24,000 nt of DNA from Lyngbya sp. (GTDB taxonomy: Bacteria > Cyanobacteriota > Cyanobacteriia > Cyanobacteriales > Microcoleaceae): positions 524-24,523 of the forward strand of contig JAYKHV010000135.1 of assembly GCA_035285085.1 (NCBI GenBank), read 5' to 3'. This document shows positions 3,952 to 23,385 of this stretch, one piece after another. The position numbers and the translations under genes were made by a program. Under the pieces are notes generated by a model. It was not told the DNA's origin and searched no databases. It saw nothing but the letters and a program-made list of their open reading frames with translations. Within the stretch, counting starts at the first letter, position 1. The number at the start of each line of letters is the position of its first letter.

Positions 3952-5460
3952 TCAAAACGGTTCAGCCTCGCTTGTAGAAGCCATTACCGCTGGCATCGGT
4001 AAAGATTGGGGAAATTTGGGAAGTTCAATAGAAGCCAGACTTCGCAATTTTTTCTGACGAGTGGGTTGAATTAACGGCGCCGGCCAATTGGACGTTTTTG
4101 ATGAAGCGGAAACCGTTTGCTGTGGTTGTGAACCCCGATGCAATTGATCGATCGGTTGATGGGGTGAAGCAATAAACCCCGATTTCCCCATGTCTAACTC
4201 AAAACTGGGTATTGTCGAGGAAGCGTATTCAATCCGAATTCGATCCAACTCATCCTCTACAAACCGAGGAGAAGGTTGCACGGGTGGAGGTTCAACCCAT
4301 TGAGATTCTGACTCCGAAGCTTGCTCAAACGGATTTGGTGTTAAAGTGGTATTGTCGGAATCATCTTGATGCCAATAGTTTTCTAATTCCCCTAAATCCG
4401 GCAGTTCTGACAGTTGAGAAGCGGGTAAACTTTGCCGATAATCTCTGAGGTGATCGGGTGGGGAAAAATCTTCCGTACTGTCTTCTCGATCAACAGGAAT
4501 TTGTTCATCTAACTCCAACCATTCATCCACCATTTCCTCGTCAAAATCATCAGGGTGTTGTTCTTGTCGGAGAAATTCATCGAGACGTTCTACACTATCA
4601 TTATCGCTGCTGGAGTCGGCTGACCAAGGTTGAACCGGCTGAGATCTCGGAACAGCCATGCGATCGCGAGAAAGTTCAAATGAGGGAGACTGACTCGAAT
4701 CATCCCCTGTACTCCCACTATCAATTTTAGGTAAATCTAAAATCACCTTGTTGGGTTCAACTCGTCCTGAACTCGACTGTCGCGACTGCATCTCCAAACA
4801 TCGCTCTAATGCCACTTTAAACTGTAGGGTATGACGTTGCTGACGGTGTAAACGCGATCGCAATTCTCGACAAACATTTTGAGTTTGCACTAACTCATGG
4901 AACTGTTCATTATAACGCTGTTGAGCGCTGGCACATTCTCGTTCCATCTGAGCCATGCGAGTTTGGCTGGTTTCCCATTGTTCTGTCAAGGTTTCCACCA
5001 AAACTTGTTGGCGGCGAATGACTTGATTAGACAGTTCTAGCTTCCCAAACAAACGACTCACTTGCTCGGTCGCAAAAGCCAGTTCTTGAGTACGTCGCTC
5101 GACTAAATTCTCTTTGTCTTCTAACCCTTTTCTGCATTCATCGAGTTCAATTTCCAGTTCTGTGACTCGATTGACTAAATCTCGATTACACTCGTGTAAG
5201 GCTTGAATCAGTTGAGATGGATTTTCCCTTTGATGATGTCTAACTGTTACTTCTGGGGAGGCTAACTTCTCTTCAACCGCTTCTGGGCTGGTTTCTTCCT
5301 CTGAGATCTCCTCTATAACGGGAAGCTGATCGATACTGATGGCATTGGGTAAATTAACAGTCTCCCATTCTTGTTCTTCGGAGTGACTCAAAGGGTGAGA
5401 ATCTGTTGGAGGAGTGGAATCAGACGGATTGAGGTTGGGCGGAAGATCGGCTCCGGGCAT
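3952..5460 (-). CDS. Hypothetical acidic coiled-coil protein (502 aa), no family recognised
   Basis: Long ATG-initiated ORF. Its central region (about aa 70-230) is heptad/charged-rich (RVTELEIELDECRKGLEDKENLVERRTQELAFATEQVSRL...). It is flanked by Pro/Ser/Asp/Glu-rich low-complexity regions. A terminator lies just downstream. Confidence 0.65.
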   Translation of the reverse strand: MPGADLPPNLNPSDSTPPTDSHPLSHSEEQEWETVNLPNAISIDQLPVIEEISEEETSPEAVEEKLASPEVTVRHHQRENPSQLIQALHECNRDLVNRVTELEIELDECRKGLEDKENLVERRTQELAFATEQVSRLFGKLELSNQVIRRQQVLVETLTEQWETSQTRMAQMERECASAQQRYNEQFHELVQTQNVCRELRSRLHRQQRHTLQFKVALERCLEMQSRQSSSGRVEPNKVILDLPKIDSGSTGDDSSQSPSFELSRDRMAVPRSQPVQPWSADSSSDNDSVERLDEFLRQEQHPDDFDEEMVDEWLELDEQIPVDREDSTEDFSPPDHLRDYRQSLPASQLSELPDLGELENYWHQDDSDNTTLTPNPFEQASESESQWVEPPPVQPSPRFVEDELDRIRIEYASSTIPSFELDMGKSGFIASPHQPIDQLHRGSQPQQTVSASSKTSNWPAPLIQPTRQKKLRSLASIELPKFPQSLPMPAVMASTSEAEPF

Positions 5461-5948: not shown

Positions 5949-7169
5949 ATGCTCGTATATGAAATGAAACTAAACGGAACGGAAAGCCAGTACCAAAGGC
6001 TAGATCAAGCCATTCGGACAGGTAGATTCGTTCGGAATAGCGTCATCAGAGCATGGTTAGATGGTCAAGTCAAAAGTCGTAATGATGCCTACAAATATTG
6101 CAAGGTACTGTCAGATAATCCTGAGTTTCCTTGGGTATCAAAGTTAAACTCGATGGCACGACAAGCTCACGCAGAAAGAGCCTGGGCATCAATTGAACGG
6201 TTCTATAAGAATTGTCGGCAAAAGATACCAGGAAAGAAGGAATTTCCTCGGTTTAAAAAGTACCAAGTTAGAGAATCTGTTGAGTACAAGTCCTCGGGCT
6301 GGAAACTATCTAATGACAGACGTTATTTAACGTTTTCAGACAAGTTTCAAGCAGGTACATTTAAACTTTGGGGAAGTCGAAACCTGCACTTCTATCAACT
6401 CGAACAAATTAAACGAGTGAGGGTAATTAGAAGGCATGACGGGTATTATGCACAATTTCTGATAGACCATGAACGAGAGGAGAAGAAAAAACTCACAGGA
6501 AAACAAACAGGATTAGACGTTGGTTTAAACTATTTCTACACTGATTGTTCTGGGAATCAGATAGACAATCCTCGGTTTTTGAGAAAGGATGAACGCAAAA
6601 TTAAAAAGTTGCAACGTCGGTTATCGAGAACTCAAAAAGGAAGTCAAAATTGCAAAAAAGCCAGAAACAGATTAGGTAGAGCGCATCTCAAGGTTTCACG
6701 CAGACGTAACGATTGGGTTTGTAAATTAGCCCAACACGTCATACGGTCTAACGACTTAGTAGCGATTGAAAATCTACGGATTCGCAACATGGTTAAAAAC
6801 CATCATCTAGCCAAGTCGATTAGTGATGCAGCTTGGTATAGATTTAGAGAATGGCTAGAATATTTTGGGAGAATTTATGGGGTTCCAGTTATTGCTGTTG
6901 AACCTAAAAACACCTCCCAAAACTGTTCAAGATGTGGCGAGAAAGTCTTTAAAACTCTCAGCACTAGAACCCATAAATGTCCGCATTGTGGACATGAAGC
7001 AGATCGCGATAAAAACGCATCGGAAAACATTCTCAAATCTGCATTAAGACAACTCGCAAATACCGTCGGGCAGACGGAAATTAACGCCTCCAGAGAGAAT
7101 GATCTCTGCTTTGTTGGGGAAACTCAACCTAGTAAATCAACTCGTAGAAAGAGGAAACCCAAACAGTAA
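5949..7169 (+). CDS. tnpB: TnpB, the RNA-guided RuvC endonuclease (IS200/IS605-family OrfB, IS1341-like), apparently intact
   Basis: 406 aa. The N-terminus MLVYEMKLNGTESQYQRLDQAIRTGRFVRNSVIRAW is typical. RuvC-I is GLDVGLN, RuvC-II is VAIENLRIRNM and RuvC-III is ADRDKNASENI. The zinc finger is CSRCG...CPHCG. Confidence 0.9.
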   Translation: MLVYEMKLNGTESQYQRLDQAIRTGRFVRNSVIRAWLDGQVKSRNDAYKYCKVLSDNPEFPWVSKLNSMARQAHAERAWASIERFYKNCRQKIPGKKEFPRFKKYQVRESVEYKSSGWKLSNDRRYLTFSDKFQAGTFKLWGSRNLHFYQLEQIKRVRVIRRHDGYYAQFLIDHEREEKKKLTGKQTGLDVGLNYFYTDCSGNQIDNPRFLRKDERKIKKLQRRLSRTQKGSQNCKKARNRLGRAHLKVSRRRNDWVCKLAQHVIRSNDLVAIENLRIRNMVKNHHLAKSISDAAWYRFREWLEYFGRIYGVPVIAVEPKNTSQNCSRCGEKVFKTLSTRTHKCPHCGHEADRDKNASENILKSALRQLANTVGQTEINASRENDLCFVGETQPSKSTRRKRKPKQ

Positions 7170-8143: not shown

Positions 8144-9409
8144 TCAACTGTACTGGCAAAAAAGCTCCGCATCGGTAAAATCGCTAAAGAGGCTGGCTAA
8201 AATGGTATTAGAAAATAAAAACCCTTCTGGATCGGTTAATCTCAGAGATCCGGACATCGAAAGATCCCCTTGGCGATCAACAGACTTGTTTTGATCATCA
8301 ACCTCGAAAATTTCCACCCATCCCTGTTGCTGGTAGGGGCGCAAGCCGTGTAAAATCCGTTCAACGGTTTGAATGCCAAATTGTTGACTTAAACTGCTTA
8401 AATTGAGTCCGACCGCCAAGCGCAACCCCAACATCAACCTTTCAAGTAAGCGATCGCCAGCACTATCAACCCATTCGGCATTTTCCATTTGATTTTCAGA
8501 GCGAACCCACTGATAATAAAGCCGAGTCTGTCGGGGACGAGTGAGGCGATATCCCTGTAAATAACTGGCAGCCCCCATGCCAAACCCGTAGTAAGGTAAA
8601 CAATGCCAGTAAACTAAATTATGGCGACATTCCCGACCCGGTTGGGCATAATTCGACACCTCATAGTGAGTATAACCTGCTTGAGTTAAGGTTTTTTGGG
8701 CTAAACGATACATGGCAGTTGTGGCTTCATCCGTCGGTAGCGGTGACTCTCCGGGTGAATAATATCGTCCAAAAACCGTTTTGGGTTCCACAATCAGGTC
8801 ATAATGAGAAATATGAGGGGGATTGATGTTTAAAACCTGTTCTAGAGACTGTTGCCAAAGTTCTAGGGTTTGATGGGGTAAACCGGAAATTAGATCCAGA
8901 CTGTAGTTGGCAACTCCAACAGCATCAATGAGATCAACCGCCTTCCAAACATCTGCGACTGTATGCGATCGCCCACAAGCTTGTAACAGTTCATCTTGAA
9001 ACGCTTGCACGCCCAAGCTTACCCGATTAATTCCCAAATTCACAAACCCTTGTAACCGATCGCGATCAAAGGTGTCCGGGTCCATTTCCATCGAGATTTC
9101 CGCATCGGAATCAATCCCAAAGCGTTGTTCAAGTGTATCAAGAATCTGACCCAATTGACTCACCGATAACAGCGAAGGCGTTCCCCCGCCGAAAAAAACC
9201 GTTTCTAGAGGCCGATCCCCAACGGGGGCTTGAGTAATTTCCTCACACAACACGTCTACATACTGTTGCATCCAAGCCGAATTTTCACCCCGTTGGCCGC
9301 CAACCACCGCAACCGCAAAATCGCAATAATAGCAGCGACGACGACAGAAGGGAATATGAACATAAGCCGATCTTGGCATTAAGGAAATTGAGGTGTTGAC
9401 CATTTCCAT
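8144..9409 (-). CDS. hemW: Radical-SAM HemN-like protein, HemW-type heme chaperone (coproporphyrinogen III oxidase-like)
   Basis: 421 aa. YVHIPFCRRRCYYCDF carries the CxxxCxxC radical-SAM cluster motif and lacks the extra HemN cysteine. FFGGGTPSLL is present, along with a HemN_C-like C-terminus. Confidence 0.85.
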   Translation of the reverse strand: MEMVNTSISLMPRSAYVHIPFCRRRCYYCDFAVAVVGGQRGENSAWMQQYVDVLCEEITQAPVGDRPLETVFFGGGTPSLLSVSQLGQILDTLEQRFGIDSDAEISMEMDPDTFDRDRLQGFVNLGINRVSLGVQAFQDELLQACGRSHTVADVWKAVDLIDAVGVANYSLDLISGLPHQTLELWQQSLEQVLNINPPHISHYDLIVEPKTVFGRYYSPGESPLPTDEATTAMYRLAQKTLTQAGYTHYEVSNYAQPGRECRHNLVYWHCLPYYGFGMGAASYLQGYRLTRPRQTRLYYQWVRSENQMENAEWVDSAGDRLLERLMLGLRLAVGLNLSSLSQQFGIQTVERILHGLRPYQQQGWVEIFEVDDQNKSVDRQGDLSMSGSLRLTDPEGFLFSNTILASLFSDFTDAELFCQYS

Positions 9410-9691
9410 ACTTTTTGTAACAACAAATCAACAATATTTAACTGTATCTATTTTTTGTTAAGATCGGCAGACAGAGGACGGGTGGGGTAAAAGCGAAGAA
9501 AGTCTCAGTCAAATCGGGATCTTGATAAAGAACGTTTATCGAAAAATCCTCAGTTGATGAGAATATTGTAGGGTTTAGCGAAATCGGATCGGTCAACCCG
9601 TAGGATTTGATTGAACGATATAATAGAACGAAAACCGAAGGAGATTTCCTCCCTGTGGGGAATCCTTATCCAATTCCATTAGCCTAAAGTA

Positions 9692-10777
9692 ATGCTAGAT
9701 GCAATCATTATCATTCTATTCATCCTAGCGGGCGCCGGAATGGGCTTCTATGGTATTGAACTGCTTCCTTACAATGTACTGGAGCAAGTCAGCAATATCG
9801 AGGGACTGCGATCGGTGACGGCTGCATTCACCGCCCTGATCGGAGGAGTGATGGGCTTAGTGGTTCAAACCACCTACCGCCGACTCGAAGAACAAGTCCG
9901 ACAGATGCCCATTGACGTACTGCTAACTCGTGCCATTGGCTTGGTCATTGGGCTGTTAGTGGCGAACTTGATGCTGGCCCCCTTATTTCTGTTGCCAATT
10001 CCGAAAGAATTTGGTTTTATCAAGCCGTTAGTGGCGGTGTTGTTCAGTGTGATGTTAGGGTTTACGGGCGTGAACTTGGCAGATACTCATGGACGAGCTT
10101 TTTTGCGACTGATCAACCCCAACAGTTTAGAAAGTATGCTCGTCGCGGAAGGTACGCTCAAACCCGCACCCACTAAAATTATCGATACGAGTTGTATTAT
10201 TGACGGTCGGGTTGAGAAGTTGTTAGAAACAGGCTTTCTCGAAGGACAAATCCTCGTTCCTCAATTTATTTTACAAGAGTTGCAACTGGTGGCAGATGCG
10301 GCTAACGACCAAAAACGAGCGCGGGGACGGCGGGGATTAGAGATTTTGAATCAAATTCGAGAAAATTACCCCGAACGCATTCAAATTCATCCGGCGGACT
10401 ACGAAGACATACAAACCGTTGATGCCAAGTTGGTGCGGTTAGCACAGGAAATTAATGCGACATTGCTCACGAATGATTACAATTTGTCTCAAGTGGCAAC
10501 CGTGCAGCAAATTCCGGTGTTGAACATCAACGACTTGACTCAAGCAGTACGCCCCAACTACTTGCCAGGAGACATCATAGACCTGAAAATTCGTAAAGAA
10601 GGGAAAGAACCCTCCCAAGGCATTGGCTATCTCGACGATGGAACAATGGTCGTGGTGGAAGCGGGAAGTGATTATGTCGGCGATCAGGTCAGAGTGATTG
10701 TTACCAGTTCTTTACAGACTTCGGCGGGACGGATGATTTTTGCTCGACCAGAACAATCAGTTATGGCTCAGGGTTGA
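9692..10777 (+). CDS. Membrane-anchored PIN/TRAM domain protein (YacL-like)
   Basis: 361 aa. The N-terminal ~130 aa form hydrophobic helices. The PIN core is IIDTSCIIDGRVEKLLETGFLEGQILVPQFILQELQLVAD...RGRRGLEIL. The C-terminal TRAM-like beta domain is GDIIDLKIRKEGKEPSQGIGYLDDGTMVVV. Confidence 0.8.
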   Translation: MLDAIIIILFILAGAGMGFYGIELLPYNVLEQVSNIEGLRSVTAAFTALIGGVMGLVVQTTYRRLEEQVRQMPIDVLLTRAIGLVIGLLVANLMLAPLFLLPIPKEFGFIKPLVAVLFSVMLGFTGVNLADTHGRAFLRLINPNSLESMLVAEGTLKPAPTKIIDTSCIIDGRVEKLLETGFLEGQILVPQFILQELQLVADAANDQKRARGRRGLEILNQIRENYPERIQIHPADYEDIQTVDAKLVRLAQEINATLLTNDYNLSQVATVQQIPVLNINDLTQAVRPNYLPGDIIDLKIRKEGKEPSQGIGYLDDGTMVVVEAGSDYVGDQVRVIVTSSLQTSAGRMIFARPEQSVMAQG

Positions 10778-11234: not shown

Positions 11235-12368
11235 ATGTATCGTGTTCCCGTTATTAGTAAATCTGGCAAGCCTTTAATGCCTGCTAAAGCTAGTCGTGTT
11301 AGACGCTGGCTAAAGGAAGGTAAAGCCAAGATATACCGTAACGATTTGCAACAGTTTGCTGTTCAATTAACAGTTGACGCCGAAACCCAAACTCAACCAA
11401 TAGCTATCGGTATTGACCCGGGTAAATTGTTCACTGGAATAGGTGTTCAATCATCAAAAGCAACCCTTTTTACCGCCCACCTGGAATTACCTTTTAAGAC
11501 TGTTACAAAGCGAATGTCAGACCGTCGCATGATGCGTCGTAGCCGTAGAGGTAGACGAATTAATCGCAAACTACCCTATGATCAACGTTCGCATCGACCA
11601 ACTCGTTTTGATAATCGCAAAACCAGAAAGTTACCACCAAGTATTCGAGCGAACAAACAACTCGAATATCGAGTAGCCAAAGAGTTAACTCAACTGTTCC
11701 CCGTTACTGGCATTGTGTACGAATACATTAAGGCTAGAGGGGATAAAGGCTTTAGCCCTGTAATGGTAAGTCAAAAAGTGATGATTGAGGAGTGGTTGCC
11801 TCAGTTGGCATCAGTCACAACCAGGTATGGTTGGGAAACTTCAAATCTGAGACAATACTTAGGTTTGCACAAAGACAAGTCAAACAAGGCTAATCAATCT
11901 CCGGCAACTCATGCTGTTGATGGGGTCGCACTAGCATCTCATTACTTTTTGAAGTGGAAAGAATTCCGAGGTAAAATTGGTCAATGGAAAGGGTATGCTG
12001 CGGTCACGGCTGCTCCATTTCTAATTATTAGACGACCACCAGTTAGTCGTAGACAGCTACATCTAATGGTGTTTGCTAAAAATGGGGTGCGTCGCAAATA
12101 TGGTGGTACTGTCACTCGTCACGGGTTTAGAAAGGGAGATTTCGTTGAGACTGAGCGCCAAGGAATTTTCTATCGGGGTTGGGTATCGGGAGATACCAAA
12201 ACTCAAATCTCAGTATCGGATTCAAACTGGAAAAGATTAGGACAGTTTTCGGTTAAGAAAACAAAGCTACTAAAACGTAGCACAAGATTAATTTGTCAAC
12301 CATTAGTTGGAGGCGTGGCTTTCCTCCCATCGGTCAAACCGAGGGTTTCCAGCCACCAAATCAGATGA
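11235..12368 (+). CDS. isrB: IsrB, an HNH-less IscB-family omega-RNA-guided RuvC nuclease/nickase
   Basis: 377 aa. PLMP domain is SGKPLMP and RuvC-I is IAIGIDPG. The Arg-rich bridge helix is RRMMRRSRRGRRINRK, followed by RFDNRKTRKLPPS. RuvC-II is IVYEYIK and RuvC-III is THAVDGVA. No CxxC...HxxP...N HNH insert lies between the bridge helix and RuvC-II. Confidence 0.85.
   Translation: MYRVPVISKSGKPLMPAKASRVRRWLKEGKAKIYRNDLQQFAVQLTVDAETQTQPIAIGIDPGKLFTGIGVQSSKATLFTAHLELPFKTVTKRMSDRRMMRRSRRGRRINRKLPYDQRSHRPTRFDNRKTRKLPPSIRANKQLEYRVAKELTQLFPVTGIVYEYIKARGDKGFSPVMVSQKVMIEEWLPQLASVTTRYGWETSNLRQYLGLHKDKSNKANQSPATHAVDGVALASHYFLKWKEFRGKIGQWKGYAAVTAAPFLIIRRPPVSRRQLHLMVFAKNGVRRKYGGTVTRHGFRKGDFVETERQGIFYRGWVSGDTKTQISVSDSNWKRLGQFSVKKTKLLKRSTRLICQPLVGGVAFLPSVKPRVSSHQIR
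12315..12356 (+). repeat. Imperfect subterminal stem-loop, candidate right end of the IsrB element
   Basis: The outer stem is GTGGCT (12315-12320) / AGCCAC (12351-12356). The inner stem is TCGGT (12330-12334) / ACCGA (12338-12342), extended by CC/GG. It sits inside the last 18 codons of isrB and ends 9 nt before the next gene's ATG. Confidence 0.45.
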
Positions 12369-13771
12369 ATCCAGAATCCACATTAAACCAGCTCAAAATA
12401 GCACAGCCCAACGGTCAACTGCCTTCAAGCTTTGGAGTTTACTATAAAAACACCTTAGTGGCACTGTGCCATGCTTTAGAAGACCACATTTTACAAACCT
12501 CTAACCCAGACCCAAACCAACAACCCCTGGTTTTAGTCACCTTTCAAGAAGGAAAGTGGTATCTGCAAGAGGCCGAACGCTACTATGATATTGCTCAATG
12601 TTGCCGTCATGTGGCGATCGCTGCCAAACCGGACAGTGGATTTATCAATCATCGCACAGGCAAACTGGAAAATGTATCGTTGATTAACTTAGACTCCAGC
12701 GATGACTTGGTTTGGGAGTGGAATTTAATTGTTCTAGCTCCTGGTTACACCGCAATGGTTCTGTGTTATGAACTCTCAGAAGAAGAATATCTCCCCCAAG
12801 GTCTACCGAGTGTTGATACAGAGCGGAAATTTTACGGGTTATGGACGTTTGACTCCAACTTGGTTCGCAAGTCGGCGGAAATTTTAATCCAACGTATGGC
12901 GCCCTATAATGGTGAGTTAGCCAACCAACTGCAACAACAACATCAAGAGATTATCGGAACGAGCAGTACAACCATTCCCGACTTGAGCGGTGTAGTTTCC
13001 CGGATTGTCACCTACTTACAAACTTCTCAACAAGAACTGATTACCATTAACCGCCAAACCCGGGAACTCCGAGAACTCGAAGGTCAAGCCAAGCGAGTGA
13101 GTCGTAACATTAACGCCAATAAATTACAAGCTTTTCTGCGAATGGCTCAACGAGTCGATGAACGAGACAAAGATAATCCCTATGCTTCTTTGCAAGTCTC
13201 GGCTTTGTGCGAAACAATCGGTCAACTGTTAGATTTACCGACGGTGGAGTTGCGGCGTTTGCGGTTGGCGGGGTTATTGCATCGCATCGGTTTGGCTTCC
13301 GCTCCCCCAGAAGTCTTTACTCAAACTCCAGAAGAAATGGATGATGCTACTCGCGCTTTCTGGAAAGAACGGCCAGTGATTGGAGCTAGACTGTTAGAAG
13401 CGATGCCGGAAATTGCGATCATCAAGGATGTTGTCGCTCATCATTTGGAACATTGGGATGGTAGCGGAAAACCCGATGGTCAACAGGGCGAAGAAATTAA
13501 TATCAAAGCTCGAATTTTAGGATTAGTTTCTTATTTTCAAGAATTAACTCAACCTCGGGGAAATCGTTCGGCATTGAGTTTATCAGAAGCGTTGGAAAAA
13601 TGTCAACAACTCAGCGGGACTCGCTTTGATCCGCAGTTAGTGGAGTCGCTCACTAGCGTAGTTCGTCTGACAGAAATGGGTTTAATGCAGTTACCAGACC
13701 GACCGACTCAACTGCCAAATGTTTGGTTAGAGGAAACCTCTCCTTTAAATCAAATTAAATCCAATAATTGA
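12365..13771 (+). CDS. Signalling protein: N-terminal DICT-like sensory domain, coiled-coil linker and degenerate HD-GYP-like domain
   Basis: I take the ATG at 12365 (MNPESTLNQLK...) as the start. The ORF-track start at 12293 lies inside isrB and its right-end hairpin. The DICT-like region is LVALCHALEDHIL...LVLVTFQEGKWYLQEAERYYDIA...VAIAA...EWNLIVLAPGYTAMVLCYE. The HD-GYP-like region is LLHRIG...HHLEHWDGSGKPDG. Confidence 0.7.
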   Translation: MNPESTLNQLKIAQPNGQLPSSFGVYYKNTLVALCHALEDHILQTSNPDPNQQPLVLVTFQEGKWYLQEAERYYDIAQCCRHVAIAAKPDSGFINHRTGKLENVSLINLDSSDDLVWEWNLIVLAPGYTAMVLCYELSEEEYLPQGLPSVDTERKFYGLWTFDSNLVRKSAEILIQRMAPYNGELANQLQQQHQEIIGTSSTTIPDLSGVVSRIVTYLQTSQQELITINRQTRELRELEGQAKRVSRNINANKLQAFLRMAQRVDERDKDNPYASLQVSALCETIGQLLDLPTVELRRLRLAGLLHRIGLASAPPEVFTQTPEEMDDATRAFWKERPVIGARLLEAMPEIAIIKDVVAHHLEHWDGSGKPDGQQGEEINIKARILGLVSYFQELTQPRGNRSALSLSEALEKCQQLSGTRFDPQLVESLTSVVRLTEMGLMQLPDRPTQLPNVWLEETSPLNQIKSNN

Positions 13772-13991: not shown

Positions 13992-15201
13992 TTGACGACA
14001 CTGACCTTGACGCTTAAGCTGCCTTTCTATCGACTCAACGCTTGTAAAGCGGCTGAGTTTGAGCGACTAACGCTGCTCAATACCGAGGTGGCTAATACGT
14101 TGATTTCAGTTGAAAAAACTGAGCGGCGTAAGTATACCAGTAAAGATTTTCAGCACATTGAGATTGGATCAATGTGGATTAATCAAACAATTCGGAACAC
14201 TTGCGCTAGAACCAAGGTCAAAAAGTTTAAGCGTTTACCCTTAGAAATCAACAATCAGGGGTATCGTGTCAGTCGCAATGGCAATTTATTTACTGTTTCT
14301 TTCAGTTTGTACAGAGGAGCCAAGAAACGAATCCCTCTATCTGTCCATTCAGCTTCACACCAAAACACTCTGGAAAAAATTATAAATTCAGAAGCTAAAT
14401 TAGGTTCTTTGAAAGTTTCAAAGTCCAGAAAAGGAATTTGGTATGCGCTCATATCAGTATCGATGGATGTTCCCGATGCTTATGAGCCGAATGGCTGGAT
14501 TGGAGTTGATCGAGGTCAAAATAATATAGCCGTAGCTGCACTGCCTAAAAGCTTTGGAAAGTTCTGGAGTGGTAAGCAGGTTAAAGCTCTGCGAAAACAT
14601 TACCAAAAGCTTAGAAAATCACTCCAAAAAGCTAAAAAGTTGACAAAGCTTAAAGATATAGAAAGACGTGAGCGTCGAATTATGACTCACATCAACCATG
14701 TGATTTCTAAGCAGTTGGTGCAACTAGCTTCTGACTATGGAATGGGGTTGCGGTTTGAAGACTTGTCTGGGATTCGACAAACTTCAAAGCAAAGAAAGAA
14801 AACTAAATCGAATGCCAGTAAAAACCGTGACTTTTGGGCTTTTTATCAATTAGAGCAATTCACTCGGTATAAAGCCATTCGTGCGGGCGTGCCTGTAGAA
14901 TCTGTGCCTGCACCATACACAAGCAAGTCAGACCATCGCAACGGTGTAATTGGAAAACGAGTCAAGCATAGGTTCACGCTCGTTTGACAATTATCGGTGT
15001 AACGCTGACTGGAACGCCAGCCAAAATATAGGTCAATGGCTAGGGTTTTCTTGTCCTTTAGATCTTGAGAAATTTGTCTCTGTAATGGATGCAAACGATT
15101 TAGAGGATGGGGTCAATGACAGTCCCTTAACTGATGTGAAGTCGTGCGCAGGCGGATTTATCCCCTGCGCACGACAACCTTCAGAATCCACGTGGTTTTA
15201 A
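13992..15201 (+). pseudogene. TnpB-like gene (element 3), decayed: TTG start, frameshift, and all four zinc-finger cysteines replaced
   Basis: Frame 0 (13992-14987) carries RuvC-I GVDRGQNN, RuvC-II LRFEDLSGI and then YTSKSDHRNGVIGKR...HRFTLV*. The frame starting at 14950 carries ...FDNYRCNADWNASQNIG (RuvC-III). The expected CxxCG...FxCxxCG reads DHRNG...F-T-L-V-D-N-Y instead. Confidence 0.7.
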
Positions 15202-15347: not shown

Positions 15348-16503
15348 ATGTTAAAAGCCTACAAGTACCGTATCTATCCAACTTCTGAGCAGCAGGTCTT
15401 ACTTGCTAAGTCCTTCGGTTCAGCACGTTGGTTTTACAATTACGGGTTGGAGCTCACATCTAGAACCTACAAAGAAACAGGTAAAGGGTTAAGTCGCAAT
15501 GACATAATCAAGCTTTTACCTAAACTGAAGAAAGAGTATGAGTGGCTAACAGAACCGCCATCTCAAGTTCTACAACAAGCTGCGTTAGACCTGTCTAGTG
15601 CTTTCTTAAACTTCTTTGAAGGTAGGGCTAAATACCCGCGTTTTAAAAACAAGCACAAAAGGCAATCTATTCGCTTTCCTCAAGGGTGCAAACTAACGGT
15701 CGACTACCTGACTTTACCAAAGCTCAAAAAGGTCTATTGTCGTGTTTCTCGTTTACCCGTTGGTACTCTTAAATCGGTTACAGTTTCTTTGACAGCATCA
15801 GGTGAATACTACGCATCATGTCTATATGATGATGGAAAAGAAAAACCATTAGTAAGCAGTGATGGTAAAGCAGTAGGAATTGATGTTGGCTTAACTGATT
15901 TTGCAATCACTTCTGATGGCAGCAAGCACGGTAATCCTAAATACTATCGTAAGTACGAGAAAAAACTTGGCTCAAGCCAAAAACGATTGAGCAAAAAAGA
16001 GAAAGGCTCTAAAAATCGAAACAAAGCCAGAAAAGTAGTAGCTAAAGTTCATCAAAAGATTAACAGATGTCGTGAGGATTTTCTACACAAATTAAGCCGT
16101 AAATTAGTTGACGATAACCAAGTCATAGTTGTAGAAAATCTAGCTGTTAAGGGTATGGTTAAAAACCACAAACTAGCCAAGTCAATTAGTGACGCTGGCT
16201 GGGGAATGTTTTGTACCATGCTCAAATACAAGGCTGAATGGGACGGAAAAACCTACCTAGAAATAGATAGATTTTTCCCGTCTTCAAAAACCTGTCATGT
16301 TTGCCTAAATCAAGTAGGAAGTCTACCTCTTAGTGTCAGAGAATGGACTTGCGACAAATGTCAGAGAAAGCATGACAGAGATATTAACGCGGCAGTAAAT
16401 ATAAGAGATGAAGGTTTACGGGTTTTGGCGGGAGGGCCGGAGCGCTACCGCTTCTGGAGTTCGAGTAAGACCAAGCAAAGGCACTGCCTTTGTGAGGCGT
16501 TGA
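15348..16503 (+). CDS. tnpB: TnpB (IS200/IS605 OrfB, ISDra2-like), element 4. An apparent 1-nt frameshift near 16431-16440 removes its stop, so the six-frame ORF runs on to 17204.
   Basis: The N-terminus is MLKAYKYRIYPTSEQQVLLAKSFGSARWFYNYGL. RuvC-I is GIDVGLTDFA and RuvC-II is VVENLAVKGM. The zinc finger is CHVC...CDKC and RuvC-III is HDRDINAAVNI. After ...EGLRVLAGG, the +1 frame reads RSATASGVRVRPSKGTAFVRR with a TGA at 16501-16503. That resembles the usual TnpB C-terminus as I recall it. Confidence 0.8.
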
Positions 16504-16566
16504 ACTGTGAAGGAAGAATCCCTCGCTTGAGCGCGATGGGAGTTGTCAATGAACGTTTATTTGAAA
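16400..16566 (+). ncRNA. Predicted omega-RNA of TnpB element 4: scaffold ending at 16550, then about 16 nt of guide
   Basis: The palindrome CAAAGGCA-c-TGCCTTTG lies at 16476-16492. An imperfect hairpin CCCTCGC-ttga-GCGcGAtGGG lies at 16520-16540. The terminal GGGAGTTGTCAAT ends at 16550. The 5' boundary is a guess. Confidence 0.45.
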
Positions 16567-16571
16567 ACATT

Positions 16572-17204
16572 ATGAATCTTGACTTAACGGCTATTCGACT
16601 GGGTAAACTCAAAGAACTCACTAATGCCTACCTTGCTGGTGCAGACTTATCGGGTGCTGACTTAAGGGATGCCGACTTATCTCAAGCCAATTTAATGGGT
16701 GCGAGTTTAACCGGTGCCAATTTACAAGGGGCAAATCTACGTGCTAATTTACGGGGCGCCAACTTAACGGGTGCCAATTTACAAGGGGCGGACTTGCGAA
16801 ATGCTGACTTGCGGGGTGCAATTTTGGTCGATGCGGATGTCTCGGAAGCCAGTTTTGCCGGGGCATTTCTAACAGGGGCTAGTTGTGGACCGTTGGATTT
16901 AACTGGGGTTGATTTGCGAGGGGCGGATTTACGGGGGGTTAGTCTATCTCAAGCTATTTTACAACACGCTGACTTGAGAAATACCAACCTTTCAGGAGCA
17001 GATTTATCTCAAGCGGACTTAGAAGAAGCCAACCTCAGCGGCGCTGTTTTACGCGGAACCAACCTACAACGGGCGAATTTACTCTGTGCCATTGTCGAAC
17101 AAACTCAATTCTTGGGAACCGTTTTGGATGGGGCTTGTTTGGAAGGAACACCCATAACCGAGAATATTAATGAATTTGAGGATAACAAGCAAATTCTATT
17201 GTAA
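16572..17204 (+). CDS. Pentapeptide-repeat protein (about 210 aa)
   Basis: MNLDLTAIRLGKLKELTNAYLAGADLSGADLRDADLSQANLMGASLTGANLQGANL... is a continuous A(D/N)LxG pentapeptide array. The ATG at 16572 is the first Met after the TnpB element's right end (16550). An in-frame ATG at 16536 lies inside the element. Confidence 0.8.
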   Translation: MNLDLTAIRLGKLKELTNAYLAGADLSGADLRDADLSQANLMGASLTGANLQGANLRANLRGANLTGANLQGADLRNADLRGAILVDADVSEASFAGAFLTGASCGPLDLTGVDLRGADLRGVSLSQAILQHADLRNTNLSGADLSQADLEEANLSGAVLRGTNLQRANLLCAIVEQTQFLGTVLDGACLEGTPITENINEFEDNKQILL

Positions 17205-19590: not shown

Positions 19591-19707
19591 GCTAGGAACA
19601 GTTTTAGATGGGGCTTGTTTAGAAGGAACACCCCTAGCCCTCAAACAGAATTAGGGGTGTTTTTAATTGTTATTGAACTGGGTGATAACAAGCAAACTCT
19701 ATTTTGA
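19591..19707 (+). repeat. Relic copy of the 3' end of the pentapeptide-repeat gene (a direct repeat of 17111-17204)
   Basis: 19601-19633 matches 17121-17153 at 31/33. 19684-19707 matches 17181-17204 at 21/24, including the stop position. The relic carries about 23 extra nt that form the terminator hairpin. Confidence 0.7.
19629..19664 (+). terminator. Intrinsic terminator, probably for the 18428-19450 transcript
   Basis: CACCCCTA (19629-19636) pairs perfectly with TAGGGGTG (19652-19659) around a 15-nt loop. It is followed by TTTTT (19660-19664). Confidence 0.65.
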
Positions 19708-19759
19708 CGAACAAGTTTGGATTCAAGCGAACAACACAAATCGATTAATTGCAGAAGAA

Positions 19760-19921
19760 TTAGTTTCGTTCCTCAACCCAACCTACAAATTTCTCTGAGC
19801 GGGCTTTGTTGGGTTTCGTTCCTCAACCCAACCTACAAATTTCTCTGAGCGGACTTTGTTGGGTTTCGTTCCTCAACCCAACCTACAAATTTATTTGTTG
19901 GGTTTCGTTACTTAACCCAAC
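19760..19921 (+). repeat. Hairpin-repeat array 1: three full GTTGGGTT-N9-AACCCAAC hairpins plus one half unit, with 50/50/39-nt periods
   Basis: The hairpins lie at 19808-19832, 19858-19882 and 19897-19921. The unit is TTTGTTGGGTTTCGTTCCTCAACCCAACCTACAAATTTCTCTGAGCGG(G/A)C. A half unit lacking the left arm lies at 19761-19804. Confidence 0.85.
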
Positions 19922-20155
19922 TAGAAGTATAGATAACTAACAACGACTCAACCGTAAATTCTCGGAGTTGCTGAAAACTTTTGATACAACCCAATTTATC
20001 GAAATTCCGTACAATCACTAATTGTATGTTTGGTTGGGATGATTGATAATAGTAACGACGGATAAAAAAGGGAATCCTAATCAAATTAAATTGTTTTTTT
20101 GAAAAGGATTTTGAATGGGTAATGGTAATGGGTTGAGTTCTAGAGGTTAACAAAC
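19922..20155 (+). other. Conserved leader A of the duplicated cassette (non-coding; possible promoter plus 5' UTR)
   Basis: It is about 97% identical to 21652-21879, with 7 substituted bases at 5 sites and one 6-nt GGTAAT indel. A possible promoter is TTGTAT (20022-20027), 17 nt, GATAAT (20045-20050). GAGG lies 10 nt before the ATG. Confidence 0.5.
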
Positions 20156-21493
20156 ATGGTTATTCCAGGATGGACGGTTGTTCGAGAAATTCCCCCAGAA
20201 GTTATGATGGGTATAATAACTGGAAAATACAAGGTTTGGGGCGGTGTAATTCGTTGGGCTGCGGGAACAGAACACGCAGGTCAAATTGTTCGACATTTAG
20301 TAGCATCTCCACTCAATCCCCTCAGTGGTGCTGTTTCAGGGCTTAATTTAATTTCTGGAATTATTGCCAATGTTCAACTTGAACAAGTCAAAGCAGCAAC
20401 TCGACAAATTCAAGAAATTGCCCAATTTAACACCTATCAATTATTTCAGTTGTCGGGTCAGGTTAATTCACTTTCACAGATGACTCAACAAGTTCTTCAA
20501 ATCGCAACCGGTACGGCAATTTTATCGGGTTTGAATTTGGCAGTCAGTTGCGTTGGTTTTGCTGTTATTAATAATCGGTTAAACGCCATCGATAATAGGC
20601 TGCAAGAAATCCAAAAAGACGTTAAGGAAATCAAATCTTTTCTAGAAACTTCCGAACGCGCACAGCTTTTTTATGCTCTCAAACAACTGTTAAAAGTAGA
20701 TGATAATATTCCGGTTGAACATCGCCATACAATTCTGCACGATTCCCGCAAAAAACTGGGTGAGATCAATATGCGCTATCAGGAGCTTTTATCCCAGTCT
20801 AATACAATTGAGATAGCGATGGCTAATGAGGAATATTTTTCGCTAACAGCATTAGCCCATGCAAGATGTACGGCTGAATTGGGGATGCTAGATTCAGCCT
20901 ATGAAGAAATACTAGAAATGAATATATTTTGGCAAGCCCAAGCCCGACGAATTGCCAAAGAAGTTTTAATTGGAGAGTATCCCCAACGTTTTATAGCAAC
21001 TGATTTTGTTGATGATGTTCCAACAAGAGAGCTAATTCAATGGTTTGATTTTGCCTTTAAAGAAGAAAAAGGGTTGATATGGATTGACGATTTAAGGCGT
21101 AAAATTAAAGAGCCTTGGTATGAAAAAAGTTGGTTTACTGGTAGTGATGAAACCAAGTCTAAAACAGAACAAAATTTCGATTTCTTTGGAAGTGTTGGTA
21201 ATATGTTTGGAGGAATGACCGAGCAAATCAAAGAAAACTTGGAAAGCGGTAAAGGTCTTAATAAAAATATTGGTGTTGGTTTGGAAAAAGAGAAAACCCT
21301 GGTCATTCCAGCCCTGCGAAAATTAATGGCTAGGAGCGAAGTTTTTGAAGGTTACGTCTCCCAATACGAACTGTTAAAACATTATCAAATGAAACCCTCT
21401 GAATTTGAAAAAGGAGTCGCAGCATTACCCGAATCCTCTGCTGTTAACGGATATTTTATCCTTGAACCCGCCTTTGAATTGACGGGTTTTTGA
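20156..21493 (+). CDS. Uncharacterised protein, paralogue A (445 aa): conserved N-terminal motif, Gly-rich hydrophobic/TM-like segments, coiled coil and a helical C-terminal domain
   Basis: ATG-initiated ORF with an RBS-like GAGG. It contains MVIPGWTVVREIPPEV...GGVIRWAAGTEHAGQIVRHLV and SGLNLISGIIANVQL. It also contains TGTAILSGLNLAVSCVGFAVI and NRLNAIDNRLQEIQKDVKEIKSFLE. I recognise no family. Confidence 0.8.
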   Translation: MVIPGWTVVREIPPEVMMGIITGKYKVWGGVIRWAAGTEHAGQIVRHLVASPLNPLSGAVSGLNLISGIIANVQLEQVKAATRQIQEIAQFNTYQLFQLSGQVNSLSQMTQQVLQIATGTAILSGLNLAVSCVGFAVINNRLNAIDNRLQEIQKDVKEIKSFLETSERAQLFYALKQLLKVDDNIPVEHRHTILHDSRKKLGEINMRYQELLSQSNTIEIAMANEEYFSLTALAHARCTAELGMLDSAYEEILEMNIFWQAQARRIAKEVLIGEYPQRFIATDFVDDVPTRELIQWFDFAFKEEKGLIWIDDLRRKIKEPWYEKSWFTGSDETKSKTEQNFDFFGSVGNMFGGMTEQIKENLESGKGLNKNIGVGLEKEKTLVIPALRKLMARSEVFEGYVSQYELLKHYQMKPSEFEKGVAALPESSAVNGYFILEPAFELTGF

Positions 21494-21651
21494 TCGGGCT
21501 TTGTTGGGTTTTCTCAAGCCAACCTACAAATTTATTTGTTGGGTTTCGTTGCTTAACCCAACCTACAAATAAATTTGTTGGGTTTCGTTCCTCAACCCAA
21601 CCTACAATATTACTCAACTGATTGTTGGGTTAAGCGATAACGCAACCCAAC
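21494..21651 (+). repeat. Hairpin-repeat array 2: four hairpins of the same family, between the paralogues
   Basis: The hairpins are 21503-21523 (one stem mismatch), 21538-21562, 21577-21601 and 21624-21651. The stems GTTGGGTT/AACCCAAC are conserved. The loops differ: TTCTCA.., TCGTTGCTT, TCGTTCCTC and AAGCGATAACGC. Confidence 0.85.
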
Positions 21652-21879
21652 TAGAAGTATAGATAACTGACAACGACTCAACCGTAAATTCTCGGAGTTG
21701 CTGAAAACTTTTGATACAACCCAATTGCTCGAAATTCCGTACAATCACTAATTGTATGTTTGATTGGGATGATTGATAATGGTAACGACGGATAAAAAAG
21801 GGAATCCTAATCAAATTAAATTGTTTTTTTGAAAAGGATTTTCGATGGGTAATGGGTTGAGTTCTAGAGGTTAACAAAC
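21652..21879 (+). other. Conserved leader B of the duplicated cassette
   Basis: Counterpart of 19922-20155. The same TTGTAT (21752-21757) / GATAAT (21775-21780) pair and the same RBS region are present. Confidence 0.5.
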
Positions 21880-23244
21880 ATGGTTATTCCAGGATGGACG
21901 GTTGTTCGAGCAATTCCCCCAGAAGTTATTATGGGTATAATAACTGGAAAATACAAGGATTATGGCGGTGTAATTCGTTGGGCTGCGGGAACAGAAAATG
22001 CAGGTCAAATTGTTCGACATTTAGTAACATCTCCACTCAATCCCCTCAGTGGCGCTGTTTCAGGGCTGAATTTAATTTCTGGAATTGTTGGTAATGCTCA
22101 ACTATTTGGGTTGTCGGGTCAGGTTAATTCAGTTTCACAGATGACTCAACAACTTCTTAAGATGACAACAGGTACAGCGTTTGTTTCAGGGCTTAATTTA
22201 ATTTCTGGAATTGTTGGCAATGTTCAACTTGAACAAGTTAAAGGAGAAACTCGACAAATTAAAGAAATTGCTCAATTGAACACCGATCAATTATTTGAGT
22301 TGTCGGGTCAGGTTAATTCACTTTCACAGATGACTCAACAACTTCTTCAAATCGCAACAGGTACAACAATTTTATCGGGTTTGAATTTAACGGTTAGTTG
22401 TGTTAGTTTTGCTGTTATTAATAACCGACTAAACGCCATCGATAATAAGCTGCAAGAAATCCAAAAAGACGTTAAGGAAATAAAATCTTTTCTAGAAACT
22501 ACCGAACGCGCACAGCTTTTTTATGCTCTCAAACAACTGTTAAAAGTAGATGATAATATTCCGGTTGAACATCGCCATACAATTCTGCACGATTCCCGCA
22601 AAAAACTGGGCGAGATTAATATGCGCTATCAGGAGCTTTTATCCCACTCTAATACAATTGAGATAGCGATGGCTAATGAGGAATATTTTTCGCTAACAGC
22701 ATTAGCCCATGCAAGATGTACGGCTGAATTAGGAATGCTTGAAATTGCTTTACAAGAAATAAAGGAAATGAACTTATTTTGGCAAACTCAAGCCCGACGA
22801 ATTGCCAAAGAACTTCTGATTGGAGAGTATCCCCAACGTTTTATAGCAACTGATTTTGTTGATGATGTTTTAGTTTTAGAGCTAACAAAATGGTTGGATT
22901 TTGCATATAAAGATGAGAAAGGGCTGTTTTGGATTGAGGAATTGAGACGCAATCATATTAACGAATTTTGGTATTCTAAAGGTCTTTTGAGAAAAGGTAA
23001 ATCTGGTCTTAATCAAAATGTTGGTGTTGGTTTGGAAAAAGAGAAAACTCTAGTCATTCCAGCCCTGCGAAAATTAATGGCTAGGAGCGAAGTTTTTGAA
23101 GGTTACGTCTCCCAATACGAACTGTTAAAACATTATCAAATGAAACCCTCTGAATTTGAAAAAGGAGTCGCGGCATTACCTGAATCCTCTGCTGTTGGCG
23201 GATATTTTATCCTTGAACCCGCCTTTGAATTGACGAGTTTCTAA
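21880..23244 (+). CDS. Uncharacterised protein, paralogue B (454 aa), with a 42-aa internal module duplication and a divergent, shorter variable region
   Basis: Its N- and C-termini are almost identical to paralogue A. An extra 126-nt repeat unit is present (22061 vs 22187). The variable segment is about 22870-23030. Confidence 0.8.
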   Translation: MVIPGWTVVRAIPPEVIMGIITGKYKDYGGVIRWAAGTENAGQIVRHLVTSPLNPLSGAVSGLNLISGIVGNAQLFGLSGQVNSVSQMTQQLLKMTTGTAFVSGLNLISGIVGNVQLEQVKGETRQIKEIAQLNTDQLFELSGQVNSLSQMTQQLLQIATGTTILSGLNLTVSCVSFAVINNRLNAIDNKLQEIQKDVKEIKSFLETTERAQLFYALKQLLKVDDNIPVEHRHTILHDSRKKLGEINMRYQELLSHSNTIEIAMANEEYFSLTALAHARCTAELGMLEIALQEIKEMNLFWQTQARRIAKELLIGEYPQRFIATDFVDDVLVLELTKWLDFAYKDEKGLFWIEELRRNHINEFWYSKGLLRKGKSGLNQNVGVGLEKEKTLVIPALRKLMARSEVFEGYVSQYELLKHYQMKPSEFEKGVAALPESSAVGGYFILEPAFELTSF

Positions 23245-23385
23245 GTTGGGTTGTGTTTGAAAATATTACTCCCTTATTCTTGTAGGAAAGGATCGGGCGG
23301 AGAAGTTCCGAACAACTTGGGTTAGATGATGCGTCAAATCTTAAAAGTTCTTGATGAGATAGTTAACTTAACGATTTGACGCCTC

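Follow-up and report, generated by a model that had tools for sequence, protein, structure and literature searches.

A tandem pair of C-terminally extended JukB homologues in a Lyngbya genome: candidate orphan membrane-permeabilising defence effectors

Introduction

JukB (Pseudomonas aeruginosa PA14_03350; PADLOC model PDLC04114; PDB 9JHT) has so far been understood as the effector of a two-gene system that acts against phiKZ-like jumbo phages of proteobacteria. Here we analyse two adjacent JukB-like genes in a stretch of 24,000 nucleotides (nt) from a Lyngbya sp. metagenome-assembled genome (MAG; assembly GCA_035285085.1, contig JAYKHV010000135.1, positions 524 to 24,523). This whole stretch is called the window, and coordinates without a locus label refer to it. 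Both genes are recorded as hypothetical proteins (VKK42_23560 and VKK42_23565), on a contig of 53.7 kb.

In the 2022 Juk preprint, jukA and jukB were both required for activity against phiKZ. JukA sensed infection and recruited JukB, and the R31A substitution in JukB abolished immunity. According to two 2026 reviews of the later work, JukB is recruited by JukA and assembles into tetrameric pores, through which the early infection vesicle of phiKZ-like phages, but not the cell membrane, becomes permeable (PMC13282480, PMC13434031). The preprint already included cyanobacteria and chloroflexi among the JukB-bearing phyla and reported cases in which JukA and JukB are encoded at separate locations. 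The same concept, alpha-helical pores directed against early-infection vesicles of phages, has been put forward for DinC of the Dionysus system, related in concept to the ClyA, Hbl and Nhe alpha-pore-forming toxins (bioRxiv 10.1101/2025.09.30.679545).

Results and Discussion

The window genes encode divergent JukB homologues

The two genes lie head to tail on the + strand; copy 1 (20156-21493) encodes 445 amino acids (aa) and copy 2 (21880-23244) encodes 454 aa. An earlier note on this DNA, made from the sequence alone, had considered the protein unassignable to any family. A single PADLOC scan nevertheless places it in the JukB superfamily: each copy matched one model significantly and no other, that of JukB, PDLC04114 (copy 1, E=3.4e-21; copy 2, E=3.2e-18), with the hidden Markov model match spanning model positions 7-150 of 323. 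The same model was matched by all of the 24 diverse family members submitted to PADLOC. Scans of both proteins against Pfam and NCBIfam gave no domain, only sub-threshold coiled-coil noise, and JukB itself likewise has no Pfam domain.

For comparison with a true JukB, the N-terminal 175 aa were used in a tblastn search of plasmids, which led to a locus on a Pseudomonas luteola plasmid (L039, NZ_CP044084). Directly after a type I restriction-modification (RM) system, this plasmid carries an open reading frame (ORF) of 243 aa followed by one of 319 aa, with overlapping stop and start codons. PADLOC identified the first as JukA (E=2e-28) and the second as full-length JukB (E=4e-142), making this a bona fide jukA-jukB operon. 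The window protein is 29% identical to P. luteola JukB over aa 13-196 (E=1e-19), and the blocks common to the two include GGVIRWAAGTEHAGQIVRHL in the window protein and GGVVRVTKGYEGAGQIVGHL in JukB, as well as LSGLNLAVSCVGFAVI and LSGLNLAVSVAGFAIV, respectively.

Comparison of alignments extended the similarity. When an alignment of 114 family sequences was compared with one of 30 JukB sequences by hhalign, the two matched with a probability of 99.5% (E=1.6e-22) over 230 columns. Family match columns 7-264, corresponding to aa ~5-270 of copy 1, were paired with positions 5-259 of 325 in JukB, leaving the C-terminal ~65 residues of JukB and ~175 residues of the window proteins outside the alignment.

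Both proteins share a GGV(I/V)R...AGQIV.HL motif followed by a hydrophobic SGLNLAVS..GF helix. Residues invariant in both alignments are G29, G30, V31, R33, G42, H47 and L48, to which the SGLxL.VS..GF helix can be added. The 114-sequence alignment contains 26 invariant columns, including P13, G29, R33, G125, F135 and aromatic and charged residues near the C-terminus. In particular, the Arg of GGV(I/V)R (R33) is invariant among the 114 family members and is present, at positions 31-37, in every GGV-bearing sequence of the JukB family. It is a promising candidate for the counterpart of R31 of PA14 JukB. Taken together, the alignments indicate that the window proteins are very probably divergent, C-terminally extended homologues of JukB. 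The pair is a divergent form of a known defence protein and not a new kind of system.

Predicted structure and hydrophobic segments

An AlphaFold2 (AF2) model built from the 114-sequence alignment had a mean predicted local distance difference test score (pLDDT) of 71 and a predicted template modelling score (pTM) of 0.70, while an alignment of 24 sequences had given a model of insufficient quality (pLDDT 60). The earlier note had proposed a Foldseek search with a predicted structure. Among 350,542 PDB chains, the best match of the AF2 model was 9jht_A, 'Jumbo phage Killer B' (271 residues), with E=1.2e-2 and a probability of 0.99 over 327 columns, but with template modelling scores (TM-scores) of only 0.24/0.35. 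Because of these low TM-scores, the fold search corroborates the homology to JukB and is insufficient alone to establish it. With the weaker 24-sequence model, 9JHT ranked second. Sequence searches of the PDB with the window protein, the family profile and the true JukB returned no JukB chain, the sequence set evidently being one without 9JHT. The viral structure library BFVD held no meaningful match to the model.

In the model, copy 1 begins with a small beta-strand domain (aa 1-50) containing GGVIR(33)...AGQIVRHL, followed by a weakly hydrophobic Gly/Ser segment (aa 55-75) and the main hydrophobic helix (aa 112-138; QVLQIATGTAILSGLNLAVSCVGFAVI, encoded at 20489-20569, +), which is aligned with the JukB segment ANLALSGLNLAVSVAGFAIV. 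A helical domain would then occupy aa ~140-320 and 375-440, predicted with confidence at aa 170-320 and 375-440, with a disordered insert at aa 326-360. JukB resembles the window proteins in its N-terminal beta-strand domain, in the Gly/Ser-rich SGLNLAVS..GF helix at the same position and in the helical bundle that follows, alignable to about residue 265. JukB has a single hydrophobic segment, and it is this segment that aligns with the main one of the window protein. The aligned segments, SGLNLAVSCVGFAVI in the window protein and SGLNLAVSVAGFAIV in JukB, have Kyte-Doolittle maxima of 1.95 and 2.05 and are suited to pore formation. The differences are also clear. JukB proteins are 305-327 aa long and mostly gammaproteobacterial, whereas the window proteins reach 445-454 aa, carry the additional Gly/Ser segment of aa 55-75 (repeated once more in copy 2) and end in a family-specific C-terminal region of ~175 aa. 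Unlike the Juk operon, the window genes have no adjacent jukA, form a tandem pair of paralogues and belong to a cyanobacterial host. Of the features in the earlier description, the N-terminal motif was found, as were the Gly/Ser/Leu-rich hydrophobic stretches, the Q-rich ones and the helical C-terminus.

The pair could instead be an offensive alpha-helical pore-forming toxin, perhaps two-component like XaxAB, acting on competitors or grazers. The two different paralogues are adjacent, RTX-repeat proteins are encoded upstream in the window, and one JukB cluster (P0313) has been automatically named 'Alpha-xenorhabdolysin family binary toxin subunit A' in UniRef. We consider a toxin of this kind very unlikely. 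No ClyA, XaxA, Hbl or Nhe structure was among the top 50 Foldseek PDB matches, and no family of the ClyA, XaxA or Hbl type was matched in Pfam at E<=1. Neither a signal peptide nor secretion genes are evident, most genomes have one copy, and the RTX genes are missing from orthologous loci. No sequence or fold match of the window proteins to DinC, ClyA, Hbl or Nhe came up, and the likeness to them is a functional analogy only.

The genes as probable orphan JukB-like effectors

Given the homology described above, it seems reasonably probable that the window genes encode orphan JukB-like membrane-permeabilising effectors of defence. The earlier suggestion, itself hedged, of a membrane-targeting effector in conflict or defence thus gains support from membership in the JukB superfamily. 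By homology with JukB, each protein would most likely oligomerise and insert its Gly/Ser-rich hydrophobic helical hairpin into a membrane, the permeabilisation of which would be the effector step in a response to phage. Because no jukA lies in cis, the response would be triggered either by a sensor of the JukA type whose gene lies elsewhere in the genome or by the C-terminal region peculiar to the family.

Several points weigh against an orphan defence effector. The similarity to JukB is confined to the first ~265 residues, and the last ~175 have no counterpart in JukB, Pfam, NCBIfam or the PDB sequences. The geometric match to 9JHT is weak (rmsd 12 Å, at the TM-scores given above), and the central, presumptively pore-forming helical region with the hydrophobic segments (aa 55-131) was poorly defined in the model, with a pLDDT below 50. 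The gene is surrounded, in the closest relatives, by ordinary genes (a kinase gene, the gamma-glutamyltranspeptidase gene ggt and acyltransferase genes), and this synteny is conserved. To our knowledge, no nucleus-forming jumbo phages of cyanobacteria have been described. Finally, JukA, a sensor of the YaaW/DUF3944 type, was not found. The 24-kb window contains none according to PADLOC run on the uncharacterised ORFs, and Pfam scans of the large ORFs gave no DUF3944. A phmmer search of 37 loci with Escherichia coli YaaW yielded no match, and when 141 ORFs lying up to 4.5 kb from family members were scanned with PADLOC, the recurrent families did not include JukA.

That neighbour scan included the P. 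luteola JukA as a positive control, and its output does not attribute matches to individual ORFs; a direct PADLOC scan recognised the P. luteola control operon. The P. luteola JukA (L039 3237-3968) has no Pfam match at E<=0.01, not even to DUF3944, despite its PADLOC score, and Pfam-based tables of gene neighbourhoods can therefore miss JukA. According to Supplementary Table 3 of the Juk preprint, Chondrocystis NIES-4102 and Kovacikia (assembly GCF_020091585) have JukA homologues, and both genomes carry a member of our family. At the Chondrocystis (L042) and Kovacikia (L044) loci, no called gene annotated with DUF3944 lies within 10 kb of the family gene, and the PADLOC neighbour scan, in which JukA was not recurrent, took in the ORFs up to 4.5 kb away. 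Since JukA is listed for these genomes and yet none is recognisable near the family gene, a trans-acting sensor is possible, and we regard a JukA acting in trans as plausible.

Alternatively, the family could be a JukA-independent, self-contained immune pore-former. Infection would be sensed by the C-terminal domain, whereupon the JukB-like core would make a phage-derived or host membrane permeable. The two old paralogues would keep alternative sensing segments at aa 240-325, with the remainder homogenised by gene conversion. We hold this to be rather unlikely. If it were true, either filamentous cyanobacteria would meet phages with membrane-bound early-infection compartments or JukB-type pores would target more than the vesicles of jumbo phages.

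On the orphan-effector reading that we prefer, what is new is a conserved, C-terminally extended and mostly cyanobacterial branch of JukB that stands without its partner. This raises the question of whether the trigger of JukB-type pores can come from a factor in trans or from the C-terminal domain of the same protein, as well as what such pores target in organisms without known nucleus-forming phages. In practical terms, several hundred 'hypothetical proteins' could be annotated as 'JukB-like pore-forming effector, orphan type'.

Family distribution and genomic context

A word-indexed search recovered 344 clusters of the family at 90% identity. An exhaustive profile search of a 50%-identity library returned 588 clusters at E<=1e-3, of which 137 were at E<=1e-30. 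A pattern-based scan of one genome per species, covering 185,579 species, found only 34 loci. Most of these are cyanobacterial (Limnoraphis, Lyngbya, Capilliphycus, Microcoleus, Pantanalinema, Limnothrix, Phormidesmis, Alkalinema and Pleurocapsales); the others come from Moduliflexus, Vecturithrix, an Anaerolineales MAG, a gammaproteobacterial MAG and Truepera. Four of the 34 are split or truncated genes, among them a broken gene in Lyngbya aestuarii BL J. The protein had earlier been taken for a multi-copy one, but most genomes with a family member have a single copy. A phage origin was rejected, the scan of IMG/VR viral contigs having given no relative of the family.

Three Limnoraphis robusta assemblies contain the pair as it occurs in the window (445 aa, then 454 aa), with a gene for a Ser/Thr kinase on one side and ggt on the other. 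A single gene for the form of 454-460 aa, again next to ggt, is all that Capilliphycus salinus, a Limnoraphis MAG and a Lyngbya MAG possess; the form represented by copy 2 is thus the single-copy form of Capilliphycus and of other Limnoraphis and Lyngbya genomes. This synteny is limited to Lyngbya, Limnoraphis and Capilliphycus, and beyond this clade-level synteny no neighbour is conserved family-wide. TnpB elements are common around the gene in the closest relatives. Elsewhere, the Kovacikia gene directly follows a type I RM system in which an AAA_15/DUF4276 pair is embedded. In Microcoleus, a SocA_Panacea gene lies near the family gene, and the 314-aa gene downstream has no Pfam or PADLOC match. 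The Chondrocystis gene sits amid housekeeping genes. Matches to AriA and AbiLi were present among the neighbouring ORFs in the PADLOC neighbour scan.

These neighbourhoods bear on whether the protein is immune at all. A JukB-related protein with an ordinary membrane function, such as remodelling, stress permeabilisation or vesicle handling, could have been vertically inherited in the Lyngbya/Limnoraphis/Capilliphycus clade. The conserved ggt and Ser/Thr kinase neighbours, the housekeeping surroundings in Chondrocystis, the purifying selection on both copies (see below) and the lack of a sensor gene in cis would all fit such a role. It is less easily reconciled with a very sparse distribution that crosses phyla, with several members being pseudogenes, with the lack of a conserved neighbour or operon partner and with the occurrence of some members on plasmids or beside RM, PARIS-like or helicase genes. 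The only characterised relative, moreover, is a defence effector. We therefore give a non-immune function a small chance.

The family behaves as an accessory gene that is not confined to defence islands. The earlier note had placed the locus in an accessory stretch rich in mobile elements. TnpB elements are indeed common around the gene, and some distant members lie beside RM or PARIS-like genes. In the closest relatives, however, the gene occupies a stable slot between kinase and ggt and not a recognisable defence island.

Proteins with the JukB-like N-terminal module, a longer and different C-terminus and no JukA neighbour are also encoded on plasmid pTCL26-01_C of Nostoc sp. TCL26-01 and on a plasmid of Candidatus Chlorohelix allophototropha. 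Over the N-terminal module, their identity to the window protein is no more than 33-37%, and their genes lie in apparent operons, whereas the window genes stand alone. On the Nostoc plasmid (L040, 514-5257), the gene for a JukB-like protein of 429 aa is placed after a dynamin-family gene and accompanied by one for a 282-aa protein, for which Pfam and PADLOC gave no match. On the Chlorohelix plasmid (L041, 1-8102), the gene for a JukB-like protein of 389 aa has a DEAD/DEAH helicase gene on one side and a gene for a helicase-related protein on the other. These operons may represent uncharacterised defence systems that reuse the JukB-like module.

Two further observations concern the surroundings of the closer relatives. 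Downstream of the JukB-like gene, at a distance of ~4-8 kb, Capilliphycus, the Lyngbya MAG and L. aestuarii have a PARIS- or AbiL-like pair of an AAA_21 ATPase and RloB (L001 18036-19873; L007 6207-7876; L008 15657-17494); the equivalent position lies past the end of the window. IS200/IS605-type elements are frequent in the orthologous loci of L. robusta.

History of the pair: selection and gene conversion

The rates of nonsynonymous to synonymous substitution (dN/dS) between orthologues are 0.13-0.30 for both copies. Thus, both copies are under purifying selection, and as judged from this substitution pattern both are functional.

The paralogues are 73% identical in a gapped BLASTP alignment of the proteins and 87% identical over aligned codons. 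Direct repeats at offsets of 1724 and 1730 nt span the leader and the 5' part of the coding sequence (CDS) with 95-97% identity, in agreement with the earlier account of two head-to-tail copies ~1,724-1,730 nt apart, whose ORF coordinates were exact. Further into the CDS, the offsets become 1850 and 1751 nt because of indels. Two large indels separate the copies. Copy 2 has an additional internal repeat unit of ~42 aa (22057-22182, +), recognised from the gap in the BLASTP alignment and a 104-nt family of direct repeats; it consists of a Q-rich amphipathic segment and a second SGLNLISGIVGN hydrophobic segment and is restricted to the Lyngbya/Limnoraphis/Capilliphycus clade. Copy 1 has an additional low-complexity loop of ~35 aa rich in Gly, Ser, Thr, Glu and Lys.

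Nucleotide identity between the copies is a mosaic, being 94-99% in the leader, the 5' end, a central stretch and the 3' end compared to 69-85% at 20874-21267. Similarly, dS between the paralogues is 0.05-0.25 in most regions and, at aa 240-325 (20873-21130 in copy 1, +), reaches 0.56 between the window copies and 1.8 between those of L. robusta. Within aa 240-325, omega between the paralogues is 0.13-0.33, indicating purifying selection here as well. In this segment, each window copy is nearest to the L. robusta copy of the same number, which places the duplication before the separation of these genera. Leader 1 of the window, by comparison, is 97% identical to leader 2 and only 76% identical to its own orthologue. 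Gene conversion has homogenised the flanks of the paralogues, including the leader, and has spared aa 240-325.

The spared segment spans the end of the part homologous to JukB and the start of the family-specific part, and it is a candidate specificity determinant. In our proposal, an old duplication was followed by gene conversion that kept the copies alike except at aa 240-325 and the two indels, and the retained differences probably give the copies different triggers or partners. The pair would then constitute a natural experiment, in which the segment left unhomogenised marks where specificity may reside.

Upstream regions of the two genes

Each copy has its own upstream region, the leader (19922-20155, + for copy 1; 21652-21879, + for copy 2). 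The GAGG Shine-Dalgarno motif of leader 1 lies 9 nt before the ATG. A stretch of ~190-215 nt upstream of the ATG can be aligned across Lyngbya, Limnoraphis and Capilliphycus. A candidate upstream ORF is present in both leaders, MGNGNGLSSRG* (20115-20150, +; 11 codons) in leader 1 and MGNGLSSRG* (21845-21874, +; 9 codons) in leader 2. These end 5 nt before the main ATG, overlapping its Shine-Dalgarno sequence, and have an AGGA ~7 nt before their own ATG; a 6-nt indel among copies and orthologues preserves their frame. The upstream ORF could provide translational coupling or could be a coincidence.

The leader had been described as conserved. Its pairwise identity (71-97%) is, however, not above that at 4-fold degenerate sites of the CDS (79-94%) for the same genome pairs, it is alignable in close relatives only, and distant family members have unrelated upstream sequence. 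No relevant Rfam match was obtained for the leader, and its predicted fold is not unusual (z = -1.1). From the lack of excess conservation, of an Rfam match, of an unusual fold and of sharing with distant members, we read the leader as an ordinary promoter and 5' untranslated region, presumably duplicated with the gene, and rejected a structured RNA element on the same grounds.

These data also bear on regulation at the RNA level, in which the ~230-nt leader would be a riboswitch or an attenuator with a leader peptide and the hairpin arrays described below would be functional RNA or DNA control elements. The alignment of the last ~190 nt before the ATG across three genera, the short upstream ORF that keeps its frame over the Shine-Dalgarno sequence and the greater stability of the arrays compared to shuffled sequence are consistent with this idea. 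In contrast, the leader identities, the Rfam result, the fold and the unrelated upstream regions of distant members are not what would be expected of it, and relatives have one or two hairpin units only, located 3' of the gene. We regard such regulation as distinctly unlikely and keep to the plain reading of the leader.

A simple sigma-70 scan found no + strand site in either leader. On the - strand, each leader has a sigma-70-like site, TTATCA-17-TACAAT, that points away from the gene (20049-20021 and 21779-21751). Antisense ORFs of 81 aa (19908-20153) and 87 aa (21614-21877) are also present in the leaders; the one scanned, 19908-20153, had no family match, and both were treated as chance ORFs in duplicated DNA.

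Hairpin arrays

A hairpin unit, GTTGGGTTTCGTTCCTCAACCCAAC, occurs five times in the window at <=3 mismatches, compared to 0 occurrences expected by chance. Array A (19763-19921, +), upstream of leader 1, starts with a 5'-truncated unit that retains only the right half of the hairpin and continues with three full units, with periods of 50, 50 and 39 nt; its 50-nt unit consists of the hairpin plus ~14 nt resembling the stop-codon junction of the gene. Array B (21496-21650, +), located right after the stop codon of copy 1, contains three units with a 39-nt period and one divergent hairpin. Single units fold at -9.4 to -12.7 kcal/mol and array B as a whole at -44.4 kcal/mol (z = -4.1), with z values of -3.2 to -4.1 for the arrays relative to shuffled sequence.

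After copy 2 there is only a half-hairpin remnant (AGTTGGGTTG; 23244-23253, +) at the stop codon. By comparison with L007 and L008, the right half of the hairpin and the sequence that follows it resume from about 23385, and the 3' hairpin of copy 2 thus appears to be interrupted at 23244-23253. Bracketing of each copy by arrays, as earlier described, holds before copy 1 and between the copies; with the half-hairpin alone at its 3' end, copy 2 is bracketed on one side only.

In relatives, the hairpin lies directly 3' of the stop codon. It is found there in L. robusta (one unit after copy 1 and two after copy 2), the Lyngbya MAG and L. aestuarii. Across ~760 kb of fetched loci, it is confined to the Lyngbya/Limnoraphis group and always has the orientation of the gene, immediately 3' of it, with two exceptions: one unit ~1 kb upstream of the gene in L004 and array A of the window, upstream of copy 1. 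From this position we conclude that the hairpin is the gene's own 3' element, present as one or two units in relatives, and not the general bracketing device for which it had been taken. Plausibly it is a terminator or a stabilising stem-loop, so that each copy would have its own upstream region and probably a terminal hairpin that ends or stabilises the mRNA. Judging from the unit structure, this 3' hairpin has been amplified into arrays in the window. Such repeats would lend themselves to unequal exchange, from which tandem duplications arise, and amplification together with recombination between hairpin copies may have produced both the arrays and the tandem duplication.

Genome-wide dispersal is a hallmark of repetitive extragenic palindromic (REP) elements. 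The window hairpins resemble arrays of REP or bacterial interspersed mosaic elements (BIME) in being short, imperfect tandem palindromes of one orientation in an intergenic position directly 3' of a gene. They differ from them in that, in the window and the ~760 kb of loci, they were seen only beside this gene family, with no genome-wide dispersal seen there. CRISPR-like arrays were rejected because the units of 39-50 nt have almost no spacer between them.

Array A cuts off a remnant of xisI (FDEQVWIQANNTNRLIAEELV; 19700-19762, +; 21 codons), identified by three-frame translation against the intact xisH-xisI pair of the Limnoraphis MAG (L004), which occupies the equivalent place upstream of the orthologue (about 9300-9760). 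The remnant forms the upstream edge of the cassette and is context only. The GC content of the cassette is 37-39%, compared to 42-51% upstream.

Other genes in the window

The region upstream contains several TnpB-type genes. An ORF of 618 aa (15348-17204, +) comprises a complete TnpB (HTH_OrfB_IS605, OrfB_IS605 and Cas12f1-like TNB domains; aa 1-352) in frame with ~190 aa of pentapeptide repeats, and is either a TnpB inserted before a pentapeptide-repeat gene or a true fusion. Two further TnpB-type ORFs, one of them degraded, lie at 5949-7169 (+) and 13992-14987 (+).

A radical-SAM gene (8144-9409, -) and a DICT/CHASE6_C/HD signalling gene (12293-13771, +) lie 6-11 kb upstream of the JukB-like genes. 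The start of the latter is overlapped by the 3' end of a gene for an RRXRR-domain protein (11235-12368, +). In Chondrocystis (L042 2184-5217), radical-SAM and DICT-CHASE6_C-HD genes are likewise found 5-8 kb upstream of the family member; this recurrence may be a coincidence.

Near the start of the window, a 502-aa ORF (3952-5460, -) has no Pfam domain and shows weak coiled-coil similarity of the SMC/LmuB type (PADLOC E=2e-4). The adjacent ORF of 1199 aa (313-3912), RTX/cadherin-like, contains a 201-nt tandem repeat (1894-2279, +) present in 1.9 copies with an 83% match.

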